DNA from: Gammaproteobacteria bacterium
Lineage (GTDB): Bacteria > Pseudomonadota > Gammaproteobacteria > UBA4575
DNA length: 64,000 bases
Reading direction: 5' to 3'
Assembly (NCBI GenBank): GCA_965221955.1
Contig: CBDCTA010000029.1
Coordinates: 352,001 to 416,000 of the forward strand
Part shown: in pieces, positions 28,398-40,194 of the stretch
How positions within the stretch are numbered: position 1 is the first letter of the stretch
How the letters are laid out: the number at the start of each line of letters is the position of its first letter
Made by a program: the position numbers and the translations under genes
Notes under the pieces: generated by a model
Database searches by the model: none
What the model saw: the letters and a program-made list of their open reading frames with translations, nothing else
Told to the model about the DNA's origin: nothing

Positions 28398-28413
28398 ATC
28401 TTAAAAAGATACT

Positions 28414-28443
28414 GTGTCATTACGAGCGCAGCGAAGCAATCTA
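28414..28443. repeat. Solitary REP/RPE-like arm (GTCATTGCGAG...GCAATC family)
   Basis: TGTCATTACGAGCGCAGCGAAGCAATCTA resembles a widespread palindromic repeat family as I recall it; no partner arm seen nearby. Confidence 0.5.
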
Positions 28444-28461
28444 GTCATCATAAGATCCGCC

Positions 28462-29203
28462 TTAGTTTTTTCGCTTAACACCTAGTAACTTTGCGAACCC
28501 CCATTTCCTAAAACCAAGCATCATTGCAACCCCGCTACGCTTGTTTGCAGGAATTTTTAAATCATTGCTAATTAATTGATCAAAGTATCTTGTAACTTCG
28601 TCTAATTTCTCATGCATTTTATGAATTGCTCCGTCAGTAAGCATTCCTCCAACAAAATGAAGTTTCTCATCTTGATGAGAAAATTTTGTTTTCAGAAATT
28701 CAGTTAAAATTTCTTGATTGAAAAACTTTTGTACCGGTCCCATCATCGGACCATTTAAAGTTTCGAGCTGTTAATAAACGTATACGATTAAATGGTAATA
28801 ATTCAATGAGACCTATCTTTTCAAGTTTTATAAAATGCTTATTGAGCTCGGCTTCTGAGAAATCAAACGTATCCTTAATTTCATGCTCCTTCCAATGATT
28901 AAGAACAAGGTAGGTAACTAATAACAACCTATGGTCATTCACAAATTCTTTTTCTTGTTGCAATGTAAGTTGTGTAATCAAAGGTTGTTGCAGCTCAGAG
29001 TCTAAAACGATTTCTTTTATGTCTAAACCTAACCAATTACATAATGTTTCTAGTCGATTTAGTGATAACCCTGCAGTGGAAAATAATCTCCTTATACTGG
29101 GTTCACTGAGGTTCAAAATCTCAGCAGCATCAGCATAGGTCTTACCTTGAGTTCGAATCCGCTTCTTTAGAGCAATGTGAATAGCTTTGCTTTGAACAGC
29201 CAT
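28462..29203 (-). CDS. XRE/Cro-type HTH transcriptional regulator, ~246 aa, split by one frameshift
   Basis: N-terminal HTH (TYADAAEILNLSEPSIRRLF); removing one base from CCC 28739-28741 joins ORFs 28700-29203 and 28462-28746 as ...FKWSDDGPVQKFF... Confidence 0.85.
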
Positions 29204-29205
29204 AA

Positions 29206-29267
29206 TGTATTATATATTGATACAAATATGTCATATATTGCAAATATTTAGATAATAATTGCAAATA
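29206..29267. promoter_or_regulatory. Candidate operator array in the divergent promoter
   Basis: Imperfect palindrome TGTAT-N9-ATACA (29206-29224); ATATATTG at 29212 and 29233; ATTGCAAATA at 29237 and 29258 (21-bp spacing). Confidence 0.45.
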
Positions 29268-29313
29268 ATGAGACAAACCGGAAATATGCTCTCAGATACA
29301 AGGGAGTATTTGC

Positions 29314-30045
29314 ATGAGTCTATTTGTCATTATTGTCTCCATCGGGGTCAGCATGATTATTATCGAGAGATTGTGGCCAAACGCTCTGTTACCCGAAACA
29401 CCTCGCTGGTGGGTAAGAGCCCTTATATTTAATTTTGCCCAAGCACTAATCAGTTTTATCGCTGCAGTTACTTGGGACAAGTGGTTTCCATTTTTTACAT
29501 TGTTTGAAATTGATGCACTTCCTAATGCAATACAAATCCTCATTGGCTACATTACAATTACATTTATCTATTACTGGTGGCATCGTGCGCGACATGAAAT
29601 TCCATTGCTGTGGAATGTGTTCCACCAAATTCATCATAGCCCTGCAAGACTAGAAGTAATCACCAGCTTTTATAAACATCCACTAGAAACATTCGTAAAT
29701 GGATTGTTATCCAGTTGGTTGTTACATAGTTTGTTAGGTGTGACTCCAACCGTTGCAGCCACGGTTGTAATGATCACTGGTCTTGCTGAATTCATTTATC
29801 ACTGGAATATACGCACACCTTACTGGTTAGGGTTTTTGTTTCAGCGTCCAGAAAGTCATCGTGTGCATCATCAACATGGGCTTCATCATTTTAATTATTC
29901 GGATTTACCAATTTGGGACATGTTATTTGGGACATTCAATAATCCTAAATCAACGCCTAAACAAACGGGATTTGAAATTAATGATGAATTACAGCTTAAA
30001 ACCATGTTGCTTGGAAAGTCTGTTGTTAATAGGAGACTAACATGA
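29314..30045 (+). CDS. Sterol desaturase / fatty acid hydroxylase superfamily membrane di-iron enzyme
   Basis: His boxes HRARH, HQIHH, YHWN, HRVHH and WDMLFGT; GGGAG RBS. Confidence 0.92.
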   Translation: MSLFVIIVSIGVSMIIIERLWPNALLPETPRWWVRALIFNFAQALISFIAAVTWDKWFPFFTLFEIDALPNAIQILIGYITITFIYYWWHRARHEIPLLWNVFHQIHHSPARLEVITSFYKHPLETFVNGLLSSWLLHSLLGVTPTVAATVVMITGLAEFIYHWNIRTPYWLGFLFQRPESHRVHHQHGLHHFNYSDLPIWDMLFGTFNNPKSTPKQTGFEINDELQLKTMLLGKSVVNRRLT

Positions 30046-30530
30046 AACATAAAATAATATTTTTATTCTTAATATTTATAGGCAGTGTACGTGCAGTTGC
30101 TGATATCGGTGGGTATTCAAATGTATCTTCGTTTTTCTCATTATTTAATGCATCACCTGCAATGAAAGTGTTCACGGCACATAATAATTATGAGACTTTT
30201 TCACCAATTTTTATGCTCGATTTTCATGGAGACAATGGTAGTTCGACATCTATTGAATTAACACCAGAACTCTATAGAAAATTAGAAGGCCCTTATAATC
30301 GAAGAAACATATTTGGTGCAGCCATTTCCTATGGTCCAGTACTTGTGAGCAATCAAAATACAGCGGATTTATTTTACAGTGTTGTGCAGTATAGTTTTTG
30401 TAAACCAGGGAGACTGATTAATGAATTAGAAATTAATGTACTTGATGACGTGCGCAAAGTTACGGTTCGTTATCTACATCAGGAAAATGTAAATACTGAT
30501 TATCCCTGTTCAATTGGAGGTGGACTGTGA
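30042..30530 (+). CDS. Hypothetical exported or membrane-anchored protein
   Basis: Hydrophobic N-terminus; ATGA and GTGA overlaps couple it to both neighbours. Confidence 0.8.
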   Translation: MKHKIIFLFLIFIGSVRAVADIGGYSNVSSFFSLFNASPAMKVFTAHNNYETFSPIFMLDFHGDNGSSTSIELTPELYRKLEGPYNRRNIFGAAISYGPVLVSNQNTADLFYSVVQYSFCKPGRLINELEINVLDDVRKVTVRYLHQENVNTDYPCSIGGGL

Positions 30531-31766
30531 ATAACTCTAACTGGACTGCCGGTATGTTCGCAATTTTTAGAGTTCTACTAGGATTGTATTTAATTGTGCA
30601 TTTTTTACATTTGGTACCGTGGGGTACAGAAGTATTTGGGGACAATGGAACGCTATATAGTTCATCAGTTAGTCCACTCATGGGCATCATGCCAAACCCG
30701 CTTAACATATTAGGAGAGAGTTACTTCATAAGTTTATTACTTTTGATTGGTGCAATAAGTGGAACACTAATTGTATTAGGTAAGTGGGACCGCATAGGAG
30801 CTGCCATATCAATGGTTGTATTAGCATGGCTCTATCAACGCAATCCTTTGATTGCAAATCCTTCATTACCCTTACTTGGTTGGATGTTGCTTGCTTATTG
30901 CATTATTCCTTTAGGTGGAATTGGCCGGGCATTTACTAAAAATGGAGATACGACTGATTTTAACTGGCGATTGCCGGGCTCTGCATGGTGGGCAGCATGG
31001 ATCGTATTGGGTGTAGCTTATACATATAGTGGATATACTAAGTTATTAAGTCCGTCGTGGGTGGACGGTTCTGCTATAAGCATTGTTCTAGAGAATCCAT
31101 TAGCAAGAGACTATTTTCTAAACAGTTTTTCTTTTATCGTTAGACCCGTGGTTTTTAAAAGGACTTACCTGGGCAATTACATGGATTGAACTATTATTTC
31201 TTCCTCTAATTGCTTTTAAGTCAACACGCTTTATTGTATGGGCATTGATGTTGATTGTGCAGTTTGGCTTTCTTTTCTTACTTAACTTTGCAGATTTAAC
31301 ATTTCCAATGTTGCTTATCCATTTATTGCTCTTTGACCCTCAGTGGATTACACCAAAGCCGAATAAAAAAGAAACGATTTTCTATGATGGAAATTGTGCA
31401 TTGTGTCATTCTGTTGTACGTCTTGCATTGTCTGAAATGCCCAAAGAACGATATATTTTTTCACCGCTTCAAAGTAAAACGTTTGAAAATGCAATTCCGG
31501 AAAATGTGCGTGCACAGTTACCCGATTCCTTTCTCGTGCTTACAAGTGACAATAAAGTGAAAGTCGAATGTGATGCAGTTTTGCACGTGCTTCGAAGCTT
31601 TGGGGGACTTTGGTACTTATTAGGAACAGCTTTGAGCATTTTACCTAAAGCGTTATTAAATTTCGGATACCGGTTTGTTGCGAAAGTAAGATACCGGCTA
31701 TTTGGTATTAAAAGTAATTTGTGCCCGATAGTACCAACTGAATTCCGAAAATTATTTGTAAGTTGA
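30527..31766 (+). CDS. HTTM (vitamin K-dependent carboxylase-like) membrane domain fused to DCC1-like (DUF393) thiol-disulfide oxidoreductase, ~412 aa, one frameshift
   Basis: FRVLLG start, YTYSGYTKLLSPSWVDG, ELLF, then YDGNCALC and FVAKVRYRLFG; removing one T from run 31126-31130 joins ORFs 30527-31189 and 31245-31766. Confidence 0.8.
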
Positions 31767-31770
31767 AATT

Positions 31771-32217
31771 ATGAGTAACAGTAGTAAATACGCAAAAGTT
31801 CTTTGGGTATTGCTTGGACTTTTCTGTTTCCGTGTGATTGCTCAATTATTGCAATTGGTATTTGATAGTCCATTTTTGCCTCCGTTTGACACTTGGTATA
31901 GTGGAGCGTTGGCCTATCCGTATTTGCTGGTATCTCAGATACTAATCATCAGTATTTATTCATATATCTGTTTTCAATTTACCAAAGGTTCCGTCACGCC
32001 ATCTAATCGCATGGGTATACTTTTCTTAGCCATAGGGGGCGTTTATGCAAGCTTTATGCTGGGAAGATTGTTGATTGGTCAGCTATTTACTTCTTCTACA
32101 TGGTTTCATGCTTACATTCCCATTTTCTTTCACTTTATTCTTGCACTATTCCTAATTGTGGTTGGGATATTTCATGTTAGAAATACAAAGATATATGTCA
32201 ATCGAAGCAGTAAATAA
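31771..32217 (+). CDS. Hypothetical membrane protein (~4 TM)
   Basis: Four hydrophobic segments; 4 bp from the upstream stop; overlaps the next gene. Confidence 0.8.
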   Translation: MSNSSKYAKVLWVLLGLFCFRVIAQLLQLVFDSPFLPPFDTWYSGALAYPYLLVSQILIISIYSYICFQFTKGSVTPSNRMGILFLAIGGVYASFMLGRLLIGQLFTSSTWFHAYIPIFFHFILALFLIVVGIFHVRNTKIYVNRSSK

Positions 32218-34783
32218 ATGGTTGTCGTGGGTTGTATACCCAGTTGGCGTTGGGATGGGAATCTATTTGCATATAGCTATGCAGTCATGGGGCATTGATC
32301 TTCAAATTAGCACATACGTTCCCATATTTCTTGCAGCTGGAATGATCGTGTTGTTTGAGCTTTATTTTCCACATTTGCATCAATGGAAACCCAATATTAA
32401 AGATATAAAAAATGATGCAATGTACATGCTTGTTGTACAAACGATTTTGCCAAAAGTATTAGCATTTATTACAGCATTAGTACTGTTACGCTATTCAAAT
32501 GAAAGTGGTTTATTAAATATAAACCTTTGGCCACATTACTTACCTGTATGGATTCAGGCAATGCTAATGATTTTAGTAGCTGATTTTTTCCGTTATTGGC
32601 TTCATGTTGCTTCTCATAAAAATAGTTTCTTATGGAGATTTCATGCAGTTCATCATTCACCTAAAAAATTGTATTGGATAAACACAGGAAGATTTCACCC
32701 TATTGAAGAAGTTGCTCAGTTTTTATTCGATGCAGTACCTTTCATTCTATTAGGAGTCAGTGAATATGTTCTGGCATTTTATTTTGTTTTCTATGCCATT
32801 AATGGTTTTTTTCAGCATTCCAATATAAAACTAAAGTTTGGTGTATTGAATTATTTAATTAGTACTGCAGAACTACACCGTTGGCATCATTCACGTCTTG
32901 AGAAAGAATCTAATTCTAACTATGGAAATAACACAATTATTTGGGATCTAATCTTTGGCACGAGATACTTGCCAGATGATAGAAGCATCGAAAAAATAGG
33001 GCTCATCAATTCTAAATACCCAGCAACATTTTTCGATCAACTTAAAACACCATTTGTTGGAGGGTTAGATAAAAAGAATTTGCCATTACCTAGCATTAAA
33101 CAGTTAATTGTGAATAGTTTAATCAAGCTTCAAATGAATATTACCAAATTTACTATTTGGAAACCCATGATGAAGGCAGCTAAAGATCCTATGCATGCGC
33201 AATTTAGTTTCCTTGAACAACTCTTGAAAGAAAATGCAAAGACAAAATTTGGAAAAGAACATCAATTTAATAAAATAAATTCTTATGAAGATTATTGTAG
33301 GCTTGTGCCAATTCAAACATATGAGACATTAAGCCCATATTTTATAAACCAAGATAAATTAAAAGAAATTTTGATAAATAATGAGCAACCGTTTATGTAT
33401 GCAGTTACAAGCGGGACTACAGGAGCATCAAAATTTATCCCGATTTTAGATAAAACAATTAAACAAAATAAAAAGCATCAAAAACTTTTTACCTATATTC
33501 AATATAGAGATAATCCTGGAACATTCAGCGGCAAAATGCTTGGAATCGTAAGCCCTGCAATTGAAGGATATACAGACCACGGCACTCCATTTGGCTCAGT
33601 ATCTGGTGTTCTGTATAAAAACATGCCTTCAATTATGAGATCAAAATATGTACTTCCATTTGAAATATTTTCAATTGAAAACTATGAACTTAAATATCAA
33701 CTCATCCTAAGAATTGCCCTTGCTTACAAAGATATCACCTATTTTGTTACAGCAAATCCTTCAACTTTACTAATGCTTAACAAAATACTAAATGAGGATA
33801 TTTCTGTATTGGCAAATGAAATTGAGCACGGAGGATTTAGAGAATACGAAGTATTGCCAAAGAGTATCCAAACGTTTATTACACATAATTTGCACTCAAA
33901 TCCAAAACGTGCAAATGAGCTACGTCAACTAATATCGAATAAAAAAGAAATCACCTTTGCAGATGTATGGCCACAATTACAAACAGTTGTTACATGGACT
34001 GGCGGTAGTTGTGGAATCGCAATAGATGCAGTCAAGCAAAAATTACCGATTGTTACAAAAGTAATCGAACTAGGGTATATGGCTACTGAAGTGAGAGGGA
34101 CAATAACAATTGATGCAGAAAATAATCTTGGTCTTCCTACAATTCAGGATAATTTCTTTGAATTTGTTGAAAGAGATGATTGGGAAAACGAAAAAAATAA
34201 TTTCTTAACAATTGATCAACTATCTAATAGCAAAGAATACTATATTTTCATTACAACAAGCTCTGGCCTTTATCGATATTACATCAACGACATAGTAAGA
34301 GTAAATGGAAAAATAGAAAATACTCCTACTCTTCAATTTATACAAAAAGGAAAAGGTGTAACCAGTATTACAGGCGAAAAGTTATATGAATGCCAAATTA
34401 TTGATGCGATGAAGTTAACGGAAAAAGAATTTAATTTCTCAAGTATTTTTTACATTATGCTTGCCAATAAAATTCACTCAAATTATGAATTATATATTGA
34501 AACCCCCGGAAATTTTGAACCCCCATTAGAAACATTAAGAGACTATATTGAGTCTTGTCTTTGTAAGCTAAATATCGAATATCAAAGTAAACTTGCAAGC
34601 GGGAGACTAAAGCCTCTGTCTTTGCATCATGTTCAAAGTGGAACAAGGGAAATATTTAAGAAATATTATATTGGAAAAGGGCAAAAAGAGAGTCAATTTA
34701 AAGTTGTGGCACTTCAGTACAAGAACGAATTAGATTTTGACTTTGATAATTACATTTTAGGATATTATGAAAAGGCGAGTTAA
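32195..34783 (+). CDS. Sterol desaturase/fatty acid hydroxylase domain fused to a GH3-family acyl-acid amido synthetase domain
   Basis: His boxes HVASH, HAVHH, QHSN, HRWHH, WDLIFGT; GH3 motifs TSGTTGASKFIP, GYMATE, GLYRYYIND, GEK; one uninterrupted ORF; start taken at ATG 32195. Confidence 0.88.
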   Translation: MSIEAVNKWLSWVVYPVGVGMGIYLHIAMQSWGIDLQISTYVPIFLAAGMIVLFELYFPHLHQWKPNIKDIKNDAMYMLVVQTILPKVLAFITALVLLRYSNESGLLNINLWPHYLPVWIQAMLMILVADFFRYWLHVASHKNSFLWRFHAVHHSPKKLYWINTGRFHPIEEVAQFLFDAVPFILLGVSEYVLAFYFVFYAINGFFQHSNIKLKFGVLNYLISTAELHRWHHSRLEKESNSNYGNNTIIWDLIFGTRYLPDDRSIEKIGLINSKYPATFFDQLKTPFVGGLDKKNLPLPSIKQLIVNSLIKLQMNITKFTIWKPMMKAAKDPMHAQFSFLEQLLKENAKTKFGKEHQFNKINSYEDYCRLVPIQTYETLSPYFINQDKLKEILINNEQPFMYAVTSGTTGASKFIPILDKTIKQNKKHQKLFTYIQYRDNPGTFSGKMLGIVSPAIEGYTDHGTPFGSVSGVLYKNMPSIMRSKYVLPFEIFSIENYELKYQLILRIALAYKDITYFVTANPSTLLMLNKILNEDISVLANEIEHGGFREYEVLPKSIQTFITHNLHSNPKRANELRQLISNKKEITFADVWPQLQTVVTWTGGSCGIAIDAVKQKLPIVTKVIELGYMATEVRGTITIDAENNLGLPTIQDNFFEFVERDDWENEKNNFLTIDQLSNSKEYYIFITTSSGLYRYYINDIVRVNGKIENTPTLQFIQKGKGVTSITGEKLYECQIIDAMKLTEKEFNFSSIFYIMLANKIHSNYELYIETPGNFEPPLETLRDYIESCLCKLNIEYQSKLASGRLKPLSLHHVQSGTREIFKKYYIGKGQKESQFKVVALQYKNELDFDFDNYILGYYEKAS

Positions 34784-34791
34784 CTACAATC

Positions 34792-35922
34792 ATGTTGATT
34801 GAAAACGCTAAGCTAAAAAAAATAGATATTCCTTTTACAGTCTCATTTAAGCACTCATCTGCCGAACGATCACGAACGGAGAGTGTTCTCGTAGAGATGA
34901 CATCCAATAGCGGATATTCTGGCTATGGAGAATCATGCCCAAGAGAATATGTAACATCAGAAAATATTGAAAGTGTGAAAGTATTTTTTAATGAGAATAT
35001 TCTCTCTTTCAAAAATAATGTAGATGACTTAGATAGCCTTAATACTTGGATGGGCAACAATCTTAAAAGTATTAACCTTAACCCTGCTGCAATGTGTGCA
35101 ATTGAAACAGCATTTTTAGATTTGCTTTCAAAAAATAAGGATATATCAATTGAAAGTTTAATTGGGGTGCCTGAACTACAAGGCCAATTTAAATATACAG
35201 CAGTTATTGGAGACAGTAGTTCAGAAGTATTTCATAGCACTCTTAAAAAATATATTGAAATGGGCTTTGATGATTACAAAGTTAAGCTCTCAGGTGACTT
35301 AGAGAAGGATCAAGAAAAATGTCATATATTAATTAATATGTGTAAATTTCCTTTTCGTTTACGTTTCGATGCTAATAACTCATGGAATAACCATGAAACT
35401 GCAATTAAATACTTATCTAAATTAGATATAGATTATTTTGCAATTGAAGAACCTCTTACACCAAAGGACTATCTAGGTTTATCCAAACTCTCGAATGAGC
35501 TAGATAAACAAATCATATTAGATGAAAGTTTTTTGAATCTAGGTCAATTCGAGAACCTCATCGAATATCCTGAAATAATGTGGATAATAAATCTTCGAAT
35601 ATCAAAAATGGGTGGCTTATTAAGGTCAAAAAAGATTGTTGATAAAGCAAAAGCTCATGGAATTAAGATAATTATTGGTGCTCAAGTAGGGGAAACAAGT
35701 CTTCTTTCTAGAGCTGCTTTGACGATTGCAAACTACGCAAGGGATATGCTCATTGCTCAAGAAGGTGCTTTTGGGAAACTTTTGCTTAAAGAGGACGTCT
35801 TTGAGCCTACTTTGCAGTTCGGGAAAGCTGGACTTTTAGACCCTGCAAAGTTATTTAATGGTATATCTGGTTTAGGTTTTGAGAATGTATTAAATAAAAA
35901 ATTTATCAAAGAATACTTATAA
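34792..35922 (+). CDS. Enolase-superfamily enzyme (muconate lactonizing enzyme subgroup)
   Basis: GYGE capping domain, KVK, DAN, EEP, DES metal ligands, NLRISKMGG. Confidence 0.88.
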   Translation: MLIENAKLKKIDIPFTVSFKHSSAERSRTESVLVEMTSNSGYSGYGESCPREYVTSENIESVKVFFNENILSFKNNVDDLDSLNTWMGNNLKSINLNPAAMCAIETAFLDLLSKNKDISIESLIGVPELQGQFKYTAVIGDSSSEVFHSTLKKYIEMGFDDYKVKLSGDLEKDQEKCHILINMCKFPFRLRFDANNSWNNHETAIKYLSKLDIDYFAIEEPLTPKDYLGLSKLSNELDKQIILDESFLNLGQFENLIEYPEIMWIINLRISKMGGLLRSKKIVDKAKAHGIKIIIGAQVGETSLLSRAALTIANYARDMLIAQEGAFGKLLLKEDVFEPTLQFGKAGLLDPAKLFNGISGLGFENVLNKKFIKEYL

Positions 35923-37296
35923 ATTTGGTAACGTTTTCCCAGGATTAAGGATGTTATTGGGGTCAAATTGTTTTTTGATTTTGTGCATTAATGCAAGTGT
36001 GGTTGCGTCAATTTCTTTAGATACAAAATCGCGTTTTGCAATGCCCACTCCGTGTTCGCCTGAGAGAGTGCCGCCCAGTTGTAATACCAATTCAAATACT
36101 TCATTCAAGCAGGACTTAACTACAGAGTCTTGTTTAGTGGCATCATATAAAAGATTGACATGTAAATTACCATTGCCGGCATGACCAAAATTAAAAATTG
36201 CGATATCATTTTTTTTGCTTAGTTTTTCTATCTCGGTTAATAGCTTAGGTAATTGTGTAACGGGAACAACAATATCTTCATTAATTTTATTCGGTGCAAA
36301 ACTACGAAGGGCAGGGGAAAGTGCTTTGCGAGCAGCCCATAGTTGGATTTTTTGTTGGTCGTTTTCTGCAGTTTGAATATCAATACAGCCGCTATTTTTT
36401 GCTGCGTCTAAAACAGCTTGCGTGCTCGCTTCAATATTTTCGTTTAACCCATCGATTTCAATCATTAGCATCGCTTGGGCTTGAGAATCTAACTCAAGGT
36501 TTGAATGTTGACGAATTAAATTGAGTGAGCCTGAATCAATAAATTCTAATGCATACGGTAGAGCATTTTGTGCTAATACACTCACTACTGCTTCAATTGC
36601 AGAATTTGAATTCTTGTAAAGTGTGCGAATGGTATTAATACATTCCGGTTTTGGGTGGAGTTTTAAACGTGCTTCAGTAATGACGCCTAAAATACCTTCA
36701 CTACCAATAAGTAAACGCGTCAAGTCTAAACCGACTACGCCCTTGGTGGTTGCGCTGCCGGTATGAATAGTTTCGCCGGTTCCTGTCACTGCAGTAAGGC
36801 TTAATGTATTTTCTCTGCAGGTTCCGTACTTGATTGCACGTGGGCCAGCCGTATTGCAAGCAAGATTGCCGCCAATGCTGCAATAGTCTGCGCTACTGGG
36901 GTCGGGCGGCCAAAATAGATTATTTTCTGCTGCACGTTTTTGTACTTCTATATTTAAGACACCTGGTTCAACGCGCATATTTCGATTATTCACATCAAAT
37001 TCTAAAATTTGATTCATGCGTTCGGTTGAAAGCACAACACCGGCTTGGATAGGTATTGCAGCACCGGTTGTACCGGTTCCACGTCCACGCGTTGTGATTG
37101 GAATATTATTTTCGTTGCACAGTTCAACACTATTCACGATTTGCTCGTGAGTGGTTGGAAGTAAAACTAAATCAGGACAAGCGTGTTGTTTGCTATTGTC
37201 ATAGCCATACGGCCAACACTCGCCTTGATCAGTAAGTACCGAATTTCTTCCACAAGCCTCAATAAACTTGTTTATGATGTGAGTTTCTAAAGCCAC
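35917..37296 (-). CDS. FAD-linked oxidase, GlcD/D-2-hydroxyacid dehydrogenase family
   Basis: RGRGTG, PPDPSS, GSEGILG, GHAGNGNLH, SGEHGVG, LNPGK. Confidence 0.92.
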   Translation of the reverse strand: MALETHIINKFIEACGRNSVLTDQGECWPYGYDNSKQHACPDLVLLPTTHEQIVNSVELCNENNIPITTRGRGTGTTGAAIPIQAGVVLSTERMNQILEFDVNNRNMRVEPGVLNIEVQKRAAENNLFWPPDPSSADYCSIGGNLACNTAGPRAIKYGTCRENTLSLTAVTGTGETIHTGSATTKGVVGLDLTRLLIGSEGILGVITEARLKLHPKPECINTIRTLYKNSNSAIEAVVSVLAQNALPYALEFIDSGSLNLIRQHSNLELDSQAQAMLMIEIDGLNENIEASTQAVLDAAKNSGCIDIQTAENDQQKIQLWAARKALSPALRSFAPNKINEDIVVPVTQLPKLLTEIEKLSKKNDIAIFNFGHAGNGNLHVNLLYDATKQDSVVKSCLNEVFELVLQLGGTLSGEHGVGIAKRDFVSKEIDATTLALMHKIKKQFDPNNILNPGKTLPNL

Positions 37297-37310
37297 GTTT
37301 TGGAAAACGC

Positions 37311-38256
<946 letters not shown>

Positions 38257-38262
38257 GTGGTA

Positions 38263-40194
38263 TTACTGAGTTGCGTTCAGTTGAGCGGAGTAATCAGGTA
38301 TAGCACCTAGTGATTCTGGTCGACCTTTTTTGAATTTTGCCCATACTAATTCACGATAGATACGATTTTGTGCATCCACGCTTAATTTTCCTGTAGTGCC
38401 ATCATAACGATCAAAGTCATTCGCAGCTAAGCGTTGTAGATGGGGGATCACTTGATAAGCATCGATTCCTAGTGCAGCAAAACGTGGTAAGCGAGAAGAG
38501 CTGCTAGAGGATTGTAAATCTAGTGAATCTTTTAATAATGCCATTGAAGGGTCGTTTGATAACAGCCAAGGTACATCGCAATAAGTGATGCCATTAATAT
38601 CTTGGTCTGCTGATAGATTTTCATTGCCAGAAAATACATGGGACGTGGCATATACTGGAAGATCCGATGCAAAGTGAAAACTCAGTTGTGGTCGAAGCAG
38701 TCTAGCTTGCTGGGGTGATGCGGCAATAAATACGAAATCAGCATCTTGTCTGCGGCGGGGTTCAAATTCTACTTCTGCTTTGATGATAGATTGCAAGGTG
38801 CGGCGGCGTTGTTCGCTTTGGTTGAGTTGTAGCAAGCTTTTTATCGCCACGGAGTAATCTGAGTTTTGCGGGAAATAACGTTCTGCTTGCAAAACAGAGC
38901 CACCTAATTCAAGAAAGCGATTCGTAAAAGCGGATAATAAACGTGTGCCCCATTCCCCTTCAGGTACGAGTACTAATGCAGCGCTTTTATTTTCAAAAGA
39001 CGCACGTTCAGCAACTTGCTGCGCTTCATCTTCGGGCAATAAACCAAATTGATATAAATTATTAGCACCTGTTAATGCATTATCAGAATAATTTAGTGAC
39101 AAAGTGGGTACTGGCAGAGTGCCTTGGCTGGCTAAACTGCGCACCGCGTCTTTTTGAAATGGACCAATGATGAAGTCTGCACCCTCTGAAACAGCGCGGC
39201 GGTAGTAACTCAGTGCAGAAGTTGGATCATCACCCGTATCGTAAACAACAAGTTCGGGCGGTGGATTAAAGGCTTCGCCAAATTCGCGTGCAGTTGTGAT
39301 GCCAGAATAAACCGCTTCAGCCACTTTGCTGTAGCGACCGGTTAACGGCAGTAATAATGCAATTTTGTTTGGGGCGATATGAAAAGAGGCATAATCTTCG
39401 TGAATTGAATCAATAATGTGATTAGGAATTCGGTGTCCAGAAAATCGTAGCCTCCATTGTTGAATAGCGTTATCGATAGAGGCTTGACTTGCATGTGGTT
39501 GCTTTTGGATTGCTACTAAGCTAAGCCACGCTGCAAGTTCGGGGTTATTATTGTTGGTTGACCACGTATTTAATTCTTCAACATTTGTATTGAGCATGGT
39601 TTGCCAGATGAGCTCATTATTTTTTTTCAACTGCGCAGGTTTTTTTAATAAATTATTTAATGCAATGCGTGTTTCGATGGATTGTTTTGTTTTGCCAGCA
39701 CTATTTAGAGCTTTTGCGCGCACGGCAAATAAGTGCGGATTATATTTTTCAGATAAATTAATTAATTTTTCAGGTGCAGCATCCAATGCAACTTGTGGTT
39801 GTCCATTTAATAAGGCTAGTTCTGCGCTCGCGACACGTTTGCGTACAAATAAATCTTGCGTAAGTGTGCTTTCATCAATAGCACTTAAATATTGTTGGGC
39901 TTGCAGTTTGGTTGTGGGTTGTAATACCGCTTCAGCGGCTCTAATTTGTAAGGCTTCTTTTTGTGGCGATGGTCGATTTTCGGCTTCTGCCCAAAAAATA
40001 GCAGCTGCTTCTTGATATTTGCCTGCATTGAGTAGTCTTTCAGCTTTGCGAGTTTGGGCGCTGCCAGTGTTAAATACTTTGCTAGTATCGAGTGGAAAGT
40101 CAGCGCAACTTGTTAGTATCAACAGGGTAATAAAACTTATGACTACCCATGTTAGTGTATGTTTAGTTGAATATTGCAGTTGATTACTTCGCAT
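38263..40194 (-). CDS. lpoA: Penicillin-binding protein activator LpoA (LppC family lipoprotein)
   Basis: Lipobox LTSC, IALLLPLTG, FGLLPEDEA, RRRQD, ALGIDAY. Confidence 0.92.
   Translation of the reverse strand: MRSNQLQYSTKHTLTWVVISFITLLILTSCADFPLDTSKVFNTGSAQTRKAERLLNAGKYQEAAAIFWAEAENRPSPQKEALQIRAAEAVLQPTTKLQAQQYLSAIDESTLTQDLFVRKRVASAELALLNGQPQVALDAAPEKLINLSEKYNPHLFAVRAKALNSAGKTKQSIETRIALNNLLKKPAQLKKNNELIWQTMLNTNVEELNTWSTNNNNPELAAWLSLVAIQKQPHASQASIDNAIQQWRLRFSGHRIPNHIIDSIHEDYASFHIAPNKIALLLPLTGRYSKVAEAVYSGITTAREFGEAFNPPPELVVYDTGDDPTSALSYYRRAVSEGADFIIGPFQKDAVRSLASQGTLPVPTLSLNYSDNALTGANNLYQFGLLPEDEAQQVAERASFENKSAALVLVPEGEWGTRLLSAFTNRFLELGGSVLQAERYFPQNSDYSVAIKSLLQLNQSEQRRRTLQSIIKAEVEFEPRRRQDADFVFIAASPQQARLLRPQLSFHFASDLPVYATSHVFSGNENLSADQDINGITYCDVPWLLSNDPSMALLKDSLDLQSSSSSSRLPRFAALGIDAYQVIPHLQRLAANDFDRYDGTTGKLSVDAQNRIYRELVWAKFKKGRPESLGAIPDYSAQLNATQ

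Follow-up and report, generated by a model that had tools for sequence, protein, structure and literature searches.

What does a bacterium make with a protein in which a membrane-bound hydroxylase is joined to an amido synthetase of the GH3 family? The question is raised by a gene in a 64,000-nucleotide stretch of DNA, hereafter the window, from a marine Gammaproteobacteria bacterium of the UBA4575 lineage (assembly GCA_965221955.1, contig CBDCTA010000029.1, positions 352,001 to 416,000 of the forward strand). An earlier note on this stretch had described the gene as a membrane desaturase/hydroxylase fused to a plant-type GH3 enzyme, and had suggested that an oxidised fatty-acid-like substrate is channelled into amide formation at the membrane, in a way reminiscent of oxylipin conjugation. 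We present here the analysis that followed, which leads us to read the gene and its neighbours, encoding a small membrane protein and an enolase-superfamily enzyme of the MLE subgroup, as a module of bacterial GH3-dependent aminolipid synthesis.

The open frame at 32156..34783 on the forward strand is a single open reading frame, of 875 amino acids when counted from a TTG codon; the ATG at 32195 was taken as the start, because the orthologous frame in locus L001 opens only at the equivalent ATG and because the alignment of 24 homologues begins at that methionine. Four Pfam domains were recognized in the encoded protein: FA_hydroxylase (PF04116, residues 123-256, 109.8 bits against a cut-off of 31), the GH3 N-domain (PF03321, residues 326-614, 188.7 bits against a gathering score of 23.6), GH3_M (PF23571, residues 651-718, 67.2 bits against 23.6) and GH3_C (PF23572, residues 735-840, 53.1 bits against 23.6). 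The eight-histidine di-iron motif of the hydroxylase is complete, with histidine boxes at H137/H141, H150/H153/H154, H208 and H228/H231/H232. The three GH3 nucleotide-binding motifs (S/T-SGT..K, Y..[ST]E and GLYRY...D, as defined in the accessible text of PMC12493201) are found as TSGTTGASK (405-413), YMATE (628-632, within GYMATE, 627-632) and YRYYIND (693-699, within GLYRYYIND, 691-699), and in sequence alignment motifs I and III of the GH3 part line up with those of GH3.6. Moreover, the motif core residues and all the listed histidines are invariant across 25 aligned family members, which share 45-84% identity with the window protein. The one intact frame with complete histidine boxes described in the earlier note, here 862 amino acids long, was therefore recovered together with its three GH3 motifs, and the domain search that it had proposed returned FA_hydroxylase and all three GH3 profiles above their cut-offs.

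Transmembrane helices are confined to approximately the first 200 residues, as judged by a hydropathy scan. In the AlphaFold2 model of the fusion (mean predicted local distance difference test score, pLDDT, 85.8; predicted template modelling score, pTM, 0.79) a confidently modelled helix, at residues 301-330, connects the membrane domain to the fold of GH3. The best fold matches of this model in the PDB, obtained with Foldseek, are the plant enzymes GH3.5, GH3.6, JAR1, GH3.12 and GH3.15 (E 1e-27 to 1e-24, template modelling (TM) score on target 0.62-0.82), with PaaK-type ligases ranking next; against GH3.15 (6avh_D) the root-mean-square deviation is 3.5 Å over 553 columns, and the TM score on target 0.82. 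JAR1 and GH3.12, the two enzymes with which the earlier note had wished the model to be compared, are both in this group. Solved structures were also matched by sequence, namely GH3.6 and JAR1, with E values from 1e-21 to 4e-19 (4e-19 for JAR1). A search of the genome showed the fusion gene to be its sole GH3 match.

Only two NCBIfam models match the fusion protein: that of OlsE (NF052566) over residues 7-288 (E 1.3e-53, 182.2 bits, profile positions 3-284 of 293), and that of OlsH (NF052613) over the GH3 part (E 8e-33, 113.7 bits). Among the five FA_hydroxylase genes of the genome, the domain in the fusion is the most OlsE-like, with 185.6 bits as compared with at most 88 for the others; as stand-alone gammaproteobacterial relatives score alike on that model (176-211 bits), the domain is considered part of a wider OlsE-like clade, and not OlsE proper. 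Judged by these profiles, both halves have their closest characterised relatives among bacterial enzymes of aminolipid synthesis, and not among plant ones. The label "plant-type" is thus not supported for the GH3 part, whose nearest characterised relative is the bacterial OlsH, and the likeness to oxylipin conjugation is supported only in part, both halves being nearest to enzymes of aminolipid synthesis.

OlsH (Sinac_1599 of Singulisphaera acidiphila, a lyso-ornithine-lipid synthetase) forms N-acyl ornithine from a free fatty acid with ATP and Mg2+, without coenzyme A (CoA) or acyl carrier protein (ACP), and its motif-I serine, Ser115, is essential (PMC12493201; here and below, statements taken from this paper and from PMC12971839 refer to the accessible part of each text). 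The GH3 fold, the three motifs and the essential serine are common to OlsH and the fusion, in which S406, invariant in the family alignment, is the counterpart of Ser115; by analogy, the chemistry shared by the two would be an ATP/Mg-dependent amide formation from a free fatty acid and an amino acid, with neither CoA nor ACP. OlsH is, however, a soluble stand-alone protein of 526 amino acids, whose gene shares an operon with those of the methyltransferase OlsG and the alpha/beta-hydrolase OlsI (PMC12493201), whereas the ligase of the window and its relatives is fused to a membrane hydroxylase or has one encoded beside it, with an MLE-type enzyme and a small membrane protein as its companions. 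OlsE, known from Rhizobium tropici and Agrobacterium, hydroxylates C4 of the ornithine headgroup on the finished lipid (PMC12971839). Nearly the full OlsE profile is matched by the fusion's N-terminal domain, with its complete di-iron motif, but this domain comes with a small partner protein, which the accessible text of PMC12971839 does not report for OlsE. As for the plant enzymes (JAR1/GH3.11, GH3.5, GH3.6, GH3.12 and GH3.15), they have the same Pfam domains and fold, at approximately 19-21% identity (the sequence match to GH3.6 extends over residues 6-507 of the 532-residue GH3 part), but they are soluble, act on hormone substrates, and have neither a membrane tether nor hydroxylase or MLE partners.

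We found no description of the fusion, or of the trio that it forms with its two neighbours, in the literature, the supplements of the OlsH paper (the accession list of Fig. 9, and Fig. S3), which might include fused homologues, lying outside that search. The terms hydroxylase, fused, desaturase, racemase, enolase and transmembrane do not occur in the accessible text of that paper (PMC12493201). In addition, the homologue survey of a 2026 review demanded at least 70% subject coverage (PMC12971839), because of which fused proteins would fall out of it.

It could be argued that the fusion is an artefact of assembly or annotation, or else a decaying gene, and that its two domains are independent of each other; in favour of this, the split, two-gene form is the commoner one among related loci (33 of the 57 that span the junction), and public contigs cover the linker only in part. 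Nevertheless, two independent assemblies of congeneric genomes (G014 and G001) carry gap-free orthologues of the same length, 2586 nucleotides each, with 87% and 84% amino-acid identity. The ratio of nonsynonymous to synonymous substitution rates (dN/dS, Nei-Gojobori) is 0.119 against the former and 0.124 against the latter for the whole gene, and 0.086 and 0.104, respectively, for linker codons 291-330. The fusion gene is under purifying selection (dN/dS approximately 0.12), and so is its linker. Moreover, the fused form occurs in 24 loci and in all of the 120 best protein matches, and the linker helix is modelled with confidence (pTM of the model 0.79). The reading of the linker in raw data that the earlier note had called for can be answered in part: over 31771-35922, public contigs from four coded runs are free of insertions and deletions in the parts that they cover, at a depth of 2-4, the linker being covered partly, with approximately 33000-33075 outside the listed cover and no listed contig piece spanning the whole of 31771-35922. 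An apparent joint of 33191 to 34300 in one contig was rejected as spurious, its sides being of 21 letters each in a 25-kb contig otherwise without match. Altogether, we regard the hydroxylase-GH3 fusion as confirmed to be genuine, and the artefact explanation as having next to no chance of being correct.

The family to which the fusion belongs is widespread. In the protein search, 2575 proteins reached E <= 0.001 among 7998 candidates scored, and the architecture was read on the best 120, all of which have the same four Pfam domains (44-89% identity, mostly 840-870 amino acids). According to the sources' own labels, the carriers are from Bacteroidota (Cytophagaceae, Chryseolinea), Balneolota (Gracilimonas), Gammaproteobacteria, Latescibacteria, Gemmatimonadota (Gemmatimonadetes) and Myxococcota, together with one cyanobacterial carrier (Nostocales). 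Related loci number 73, of which 68 come from an alignment-based metagenome scan and five are genome loci; a single-protein query against genome contigs recovered only two. The two halves are fused in one frame in 24 of these loci and are encoded by two genes in 33, while the remaining 16 do not span the junction. Every break of the split loci lies at the domain boundary (query residues approximately 282-340), with in-frame stops at 290-298. A quick maximum-likelihood tree was built for the GH3 part, with 43 rows (42 loci and the window); on it, the label fused or split changes at least seven times, as compared with an average of 14 when labels are shuffled, and at least two of the changes are forced by well-supported branches. 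The hydroxylase and GH3 halves have therefore been joined or separated repeatedly, which is strong evidence that they work together. With this interchange of fused and split forms as the main evidence, it is very probable that the oxidation of a lipid and the formation of an amide are coupled at the membrane by the fusion. To that extent the channelling proposed in the earlier note is supported; its order, with oxidation first, is not, the precedents of OlsE and OlsH pointing, if anything, the other way.

Two further observations were made on these loci. In L039 (746-3264), where the domain boundary is marked by an in-frame stop (at query residue 291), there is a second break, between high-scoring segment pairs, at residue 502, inside GH3, and this copy may be decaying. 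Candidate GH3-MLE fusions in L086 and L065 were rejected, since the MLE frame had been spuriously extended upstream and the two tblastn matches were in different frames.

The fusion does not travel alone, a point that the earlier note had missed, as it had the genomic island around the genes. In 50 of 52 evaluable loci the MLE gene follows directly downstream in the same orientation (tblastn; the exceptions are L030 and L041), and the small membrane protein directly upstream in 35 of 49 (tblastn, E <= 1e-5); the linkage of the module is near-obligatory. The same association is seen across genomes. Among the 401 genomes of the class sample, a profile of the small protein matches four (G000, G014, G266 and G330) and none of the other 397, and those four are exactly the carriers of hydroxylase and GH3. 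The MLE profile reaches 500 bits or more only in the three of them with a fused gene (G000, G014 and G330), while in G266, which has the split form, the MLE gene is broken across two contig ends (303 and 154 bits). Separately, the family profile gives 288 bits for an MLE-type gene of G037 (C33:11228-12316), a genome in which hydroxylase-GH3 has no match at E <= 1e-40; this gene may represent a relative of the MLE enzyme that stands alone.

The catalytic set of the MLE-type enzyme is invariant in 33 sequences (K163/K165 of the KxK motif, D193, E219/E220, D244/E245 and K272) and lines up with that of YkfB. It is the set by which the MLE subgroup is recognized, with KxK closing strand 2, three carboxylates as metal ligands and a lysine closing strand 6. 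The best solved relatives of the family profile are 2p88 (5.8e-45), which we take to be the N-succinyl-Arg/Lys racemase BC0371 of B. cereus (the PDB code being unconfirmed), the dipeptide epimerase 3jva (2e-44) and YkfB, 1jpm (6e-39), with 3r0k also among them. BC0371 is an N-succinyl-L-Arg racemase that clusters with epimerases without having three of their typical residues (accessible text of PMC2948282). With YkfB (1jpm/1tkk), 3jva and BC0371, for all of which the site of reaction is the alpha-carbon in an N-acylated amino acid, the enzyme of the module has in common the KxK motif, the three metal ligands and the second catalytic lysine. It scores under every NCBIfam equivalog cut-off and has invariant motifs of its own, GEGCPRxYVTGE, QVGETS and AQEGAFG. 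In YkfB, Asp321 and Asp323 bind the ammonium group of the dipeptide; OSBS (o-succinylbenzoate synthase) has Gly at the first of these positions, and an Asp-to-Gly change gives an epimerase OSBS activity (accessible text of bioRxiv 10.1101/2022.05.01.490185). The Asp pair characteristic of dipeptide epimerases is replaced in the module's enzyme by Gly325 and Phe327, in the conserved AQEGAFG motif, and these residues fit an acyl substituent on the nitrogen rather than an ammonium group. The enzyme therefore appears to be built for abstraction of the alpha-proton from an N-acylated amino acid, that is, for the type of compound that the GH3 ligase would produce.

The small protein upstream has no Pfam or NCBIfam family match. 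It is modelled as a four-helix bundle (pLDDT 93.8) with an invariant polar core made of R21, Q25, Q56, Y92, R99 and H121, and its profile matches 1161 cluster representatives (E <= 0.001). In-frame fusions of the small protein with the hydroxylase are found in L040/L042, L087, L080, L051, P0213, P0232 and P0256, triple fusions of small protein, hydroxylase and GH3 in P0077 and P0112, and fusions with a CocE/NonD hydrolase in P0179, P0257 and P0234. From these we infer that the small protein is a membrane partner of the hydroxylase domain, the natural fusions being the only indication of physical binding. Fold searches were uninformative (Foldseek best E 1.3; VIA-align best Z 7.0, to generic helix bundles, below the noise stated for helical proteins). 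A role similar to that of a di-haem cytochrome b was considered and rejected: the window protein has two histidines 14 residues apart in its last helix, and only H121 is invariant. In P0193 (484 amino acids) the small-protein domain is C-terminal to a MurB-like protein (FAD_binding_4 and MurB_C), an architecture due either to gene-call read-through or to an unrelated fusion.

The histidine boxes of the di-iron domain would lie at the cytoplasmic face of the membrane, like those of other membrane di-iron enzymes, and the GH3 domain has to share this face if it is to reach ATP. We consider it somewhat better than an even chance that the module, composed of the small membrane protein, an OlsE-like hydroxylase, an OlsH-like GH3 ligase and the MLE enzyme, makes a modified N-acyl amino acid lipid, or lipoamino acid. 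The domain identities, the catalytic motifs, the linkage of the genes, the patterns of fusion and fission and the co-occurrence across genomes are observed; for the substrates, the order of the steps, the outcome at the epimerase and the parts played by the small protein and by the hydroxylase domain, we infer the following scheme. The cytoplasmic GH3 domain would adenylate a free fatty acid with ATP/Mg2+, and the alpha-amino group of an amino acid would then attack the acyl-adenylate to give an N-acyl amino acid, with no need for CoA or ACP, as in OlsH. The amino acid is perhaps ornithine- or lysine-like, the ornithine- and arginine/lysine-handling relatives being a hint only; for GH3 homologues from groups other than planctomycetes, the OlsH authors regard different amino acids as the probable substrates (PMC12493201). 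The tethered di-iron domain, with the small protein as partner, would hydroxylate (or desaturate) the lipid, with either the headgroup, as for OlsE, or the acyl chain as the site, and the MLE enzyme would take the alpha-proton next to the free carboxylate and invert the amino acid from L to D. As to the order of the steps, the precedents of OlsE and OlsH, if anything, favour amide formation first and hydroxylation second. A bolder version of this proposal, which we put forward only tentatively and hold to be rather less probable than its opposite, is that the product belongs to an undescribed lipid class, a hydroxylated N-acyl-D-amino acid (or N-acyl dehydroamino acid) assembled at the cytoplasmic membrane face directly out of free fatty acid with ATP, in which case the small protein would be an unrecognised obligatory subunit of OlsE-type hydroxylases (and elsewhere of CocE/NonD), and the MLE enzyme the first member of the enolase superfamily acting on a membrane lipid headgroup.

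Several points weigh against the lipoamino acid proposal. Both halves of the fusion miss the equivalog cut-offs of their models (OlsE 182 against 475 bits, OlsH 114 against 620 bits), because of which orthology, and hence substrate, is not established; no solved structure matched the hydroxylase domain by sequence, and the FA_hydroxylase superfamily also takes in desaturases, sterol and carotenoid enzymes. Likewise, all 19 listed NCBIfam models are below cut-off for the MLE protein (menC_lowGC_arch 119.5 against 200.65 bits, DgcA 76.8 against 400), which keeps the residues used by OSBS-type dehydratases, with Gly where OSBS has it. In addition, there is no O-acyltransferase in the genomic island that carries the module, so that a two-chain product similar to ornithine lipid would be unexplained, and the regulator of the island is frameshifted in this genome.

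Other products can be envisaged from the same genes. The hydroxylase could act first and make an oxylipin-like acid, to which GH3 would then conjugate an amino acid, yielding a diffusible signal or surfactant comparable to jasmonoyl-isoleucine rather than a membrane lipid. A fusion permits channelling in either direction, plant GH3 enzymes do conjugate oxidised fatty-acid derivatives (with JAR1 matched at E 4e-19), a dedicated helix-turn-helix (HTH) regulator accompanies the module, and its distribution is patchy and island-borne, as in accessory metabolism, with 3 carriers among the 15 genomes of the genus and a different place in each. However, both halves are nearest to aminolipid and not to oxylipin enzymes, OlsE works on the headgroup of an assembled lipid (PMC12971839), OlsH prefers non-hydroxylated fatty acids and is poor with a hydroxy fatty acid (PMC12493201), and no lipoxygenase- or cyclase-type gene recurs beside the module in the clustering of flanking genes; we therefore judge this order of events improbable.

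A different fate is conceivable for the last step, in which the hydroxylase would place its hydroxyl on the beta-carbon of the amino-acid moiety and the MLE enzyme would be a dehydratase, by which water would be lost to give an N-acyl dehydroamino acid. Beta-elimination after abstraction of the alpha-proton is a standard reaction of the enolase superfamily, and it would explain the constant linkage of hydroxylase and MLE genes; the best NCBIfam match of the MLE protein is the OSBS model (1.6e-34), with cis-3-hydroxy-L-proline dehydratase at 3.9e-22, and the Gly at the position of YkfB Asp321 is as in OSBS, the substitution by which OSBS activity was obtained (accessible text of 10.1101/2022.05.01.490185). 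Every dehydratase model is nevertheless below cut-off, the best solved relatives found with the family profile are racemases and epimerases, and OlsE hydroxylates C4, not the beta-carbon (PMC12971839), so that we hold dehydration to be as unlikely as oxidation in first place. More unlikely still, in our view, is that the acid joined to the amino acid is not a fatty acid, and is instead aromatic, dicarboxylic or isoprenoid (for example, an intermediate of the OSBS or muconate type), in a context of secondary metabolism or catabolism. GH3 enzymes do take varied acids (auxin, benzoates and isochorismate, according to PDB titles), the MLE subgroup includes muconate cycloisomerases and OSBS, and the FA_hydroxylase family includes carotenoid and sterol enzymes (PMC12971839). 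On the other hand, fatty acids are the substrates of the only characterised bacterial GH3 enzyme (PMC12493201), all observed forms of the ligase have integral membrane partners, either tethered to it or encoded next to it, and no aromatic-pathway genes recur in the flanks.

Returning to the proposed lipoamino acid module itself, its genes close an operon that runs from 29314 to 35922 with 4-nucleotide overlaps, within an island at approximately 28400-35925 (approximately 7.5 kb) with a G+C content of 0.346, as compared with 0.404 and 0.411 in the flanks (features in the table below). The island separates a macro-domain gene from a glcD-like gene, two genes that are neighbours in all five congeners searched, where the gap between them ranges from 128 bp to 3.3 kb; its block is located elsewhere on the chromosome in G014 and, in part, in G001, and the full-length fusion gene is present in 3 of the 15 genomes of the genus. 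Given the low G+C content, the interrupted junction, the different places and the presence in 3 of 15 genomes, the island behaves as a transferable element. No flanking direct or inverted repeats were found at its ends, and no integrase or tRNA was seen there. To its right, at 35917-40194 on the reverse strand, is a conserved housekeeping block made of a glcD-like FAD oxidase, SIS (DiaA-like), YraN/UPF0102 and LppC/LpoA genes.

Table. Features of the island in the window, and loci with a CocE/NonD hydrolase elsewhere
Feature	Position	Strand	Description
HTH (Cro/C1-type) regulator, divergent, frameshifted	28462..29203	-	Open reading frames 28700-29203 (167 aa) and 28462-28746 (94 aa)
Pair of direct repeats of 19 nt, separated by 21 nt	29237..29276		Gap between the regulator and the first operon gene
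Second short FA_hydroxylase	29314..30045	+	243 aa, first operon gene in this lineage; Pfam 94.9 bits, OlsE model 61 bits
No-family protein with N-terminal signal-like hydrophobic segment	30042..30530	+	162 aa, overlaps its neighbours by 4 nt
Polytopic membrane protein	30527..31189	+	220 aa; weak DoxX-like match, 19 bits, below cut-off
DCC1-like thiol-disulfide oxidoreductase	31245..31766	+	173 aa, 67 bits
Small membrane protein	31771..32217	+	148 aa, four helices; 3' end overlaps the start of the fusion by 23 nt
Fusion gene	32195..34783	+	862 aa from ATG 32195; OlsE-like FA_hydroxylase membrane domain ~1-290, linker helix 301-330, GH3 adenylating amido synthetase ~331-862
MLE-subgroup enolase-superfamily enzyme	34792..35922	+	376 aa; begins 9 nt past the fusion stop
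CocE/NonD loci	L001 4867-6582; L041, L053, L061, L062, L066, L077, L079, L089		

The regulator that diverges from the operon is in two pieces, which match an intact 246-residue protein of G001 at 84% over residues 1-159 (the piece of 167 amino acids) and at 93% over residues 153-243 (that of 94 amino acids), so that either a frameshift or an assembly error lies near 28700-28746. L001 has an intact regulator of 246 amino acids, and homologues of the regulator adjoin the cassette in nine loci. The direct repeats in front of the operon are a possible candidate operator, and a promoter-like site is found at 29228-29256; such sites are not enriched over shuffled sequences, being fewer within the island than in the shuffles, and no terminator-like site was found within the island. 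The operon is opened by four extra genes of this lineage (29314-31766), whose recurrence is limited to G014, where the DoxX-like and DCC1-like genes lie upstream of the cassette. Overall, the only gene clusters that recur in the flanks of the module are those of the small protein, the MLE enzyme, the CocE/NonD (peptidase S15) alpha/beta hydrolase and the HTH regulator. Of the 42 loci with long flanks, 9 have the CocE/NonD hydrolase, in most cases immediately downstream of the MLE gene, and a search of this genome with the L001 protein gave no match to it; possible roles for it are that of a counterpart of the O-acyltransferase OlsI, or of a hydrolase of the product.

Bacterial GH3 enzymes were first tied to lipid synthesis in 2025, with OlsH, and the substrates of many GH3 homologues outside planctomycetes are unknown according to the accessible text of PMC12493201 and PMC12971839. 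The module described here offers a concrete and testable pathway, in which the product of the GH3 enzyme fits the substrate of the MLE enzyme and the hydroxylase is akin to a known headgroup hydroxylase. For the organism itself, in whose genome (96.6% complete) PF13444, the OlsB/OlsF-type N-acyltransferase, has no match, the island could be the way of this marine bacterium to a phosphorus-free lipid. If true, the proposal would add a fourth route to bacterial aminolipids and a first lipid role for a racemase-like enzyme of the enolase superfamily, and would provide a CoA/ACP-independent set of enzymes with a possible use in the production of N-acyl amino acid surfactants.

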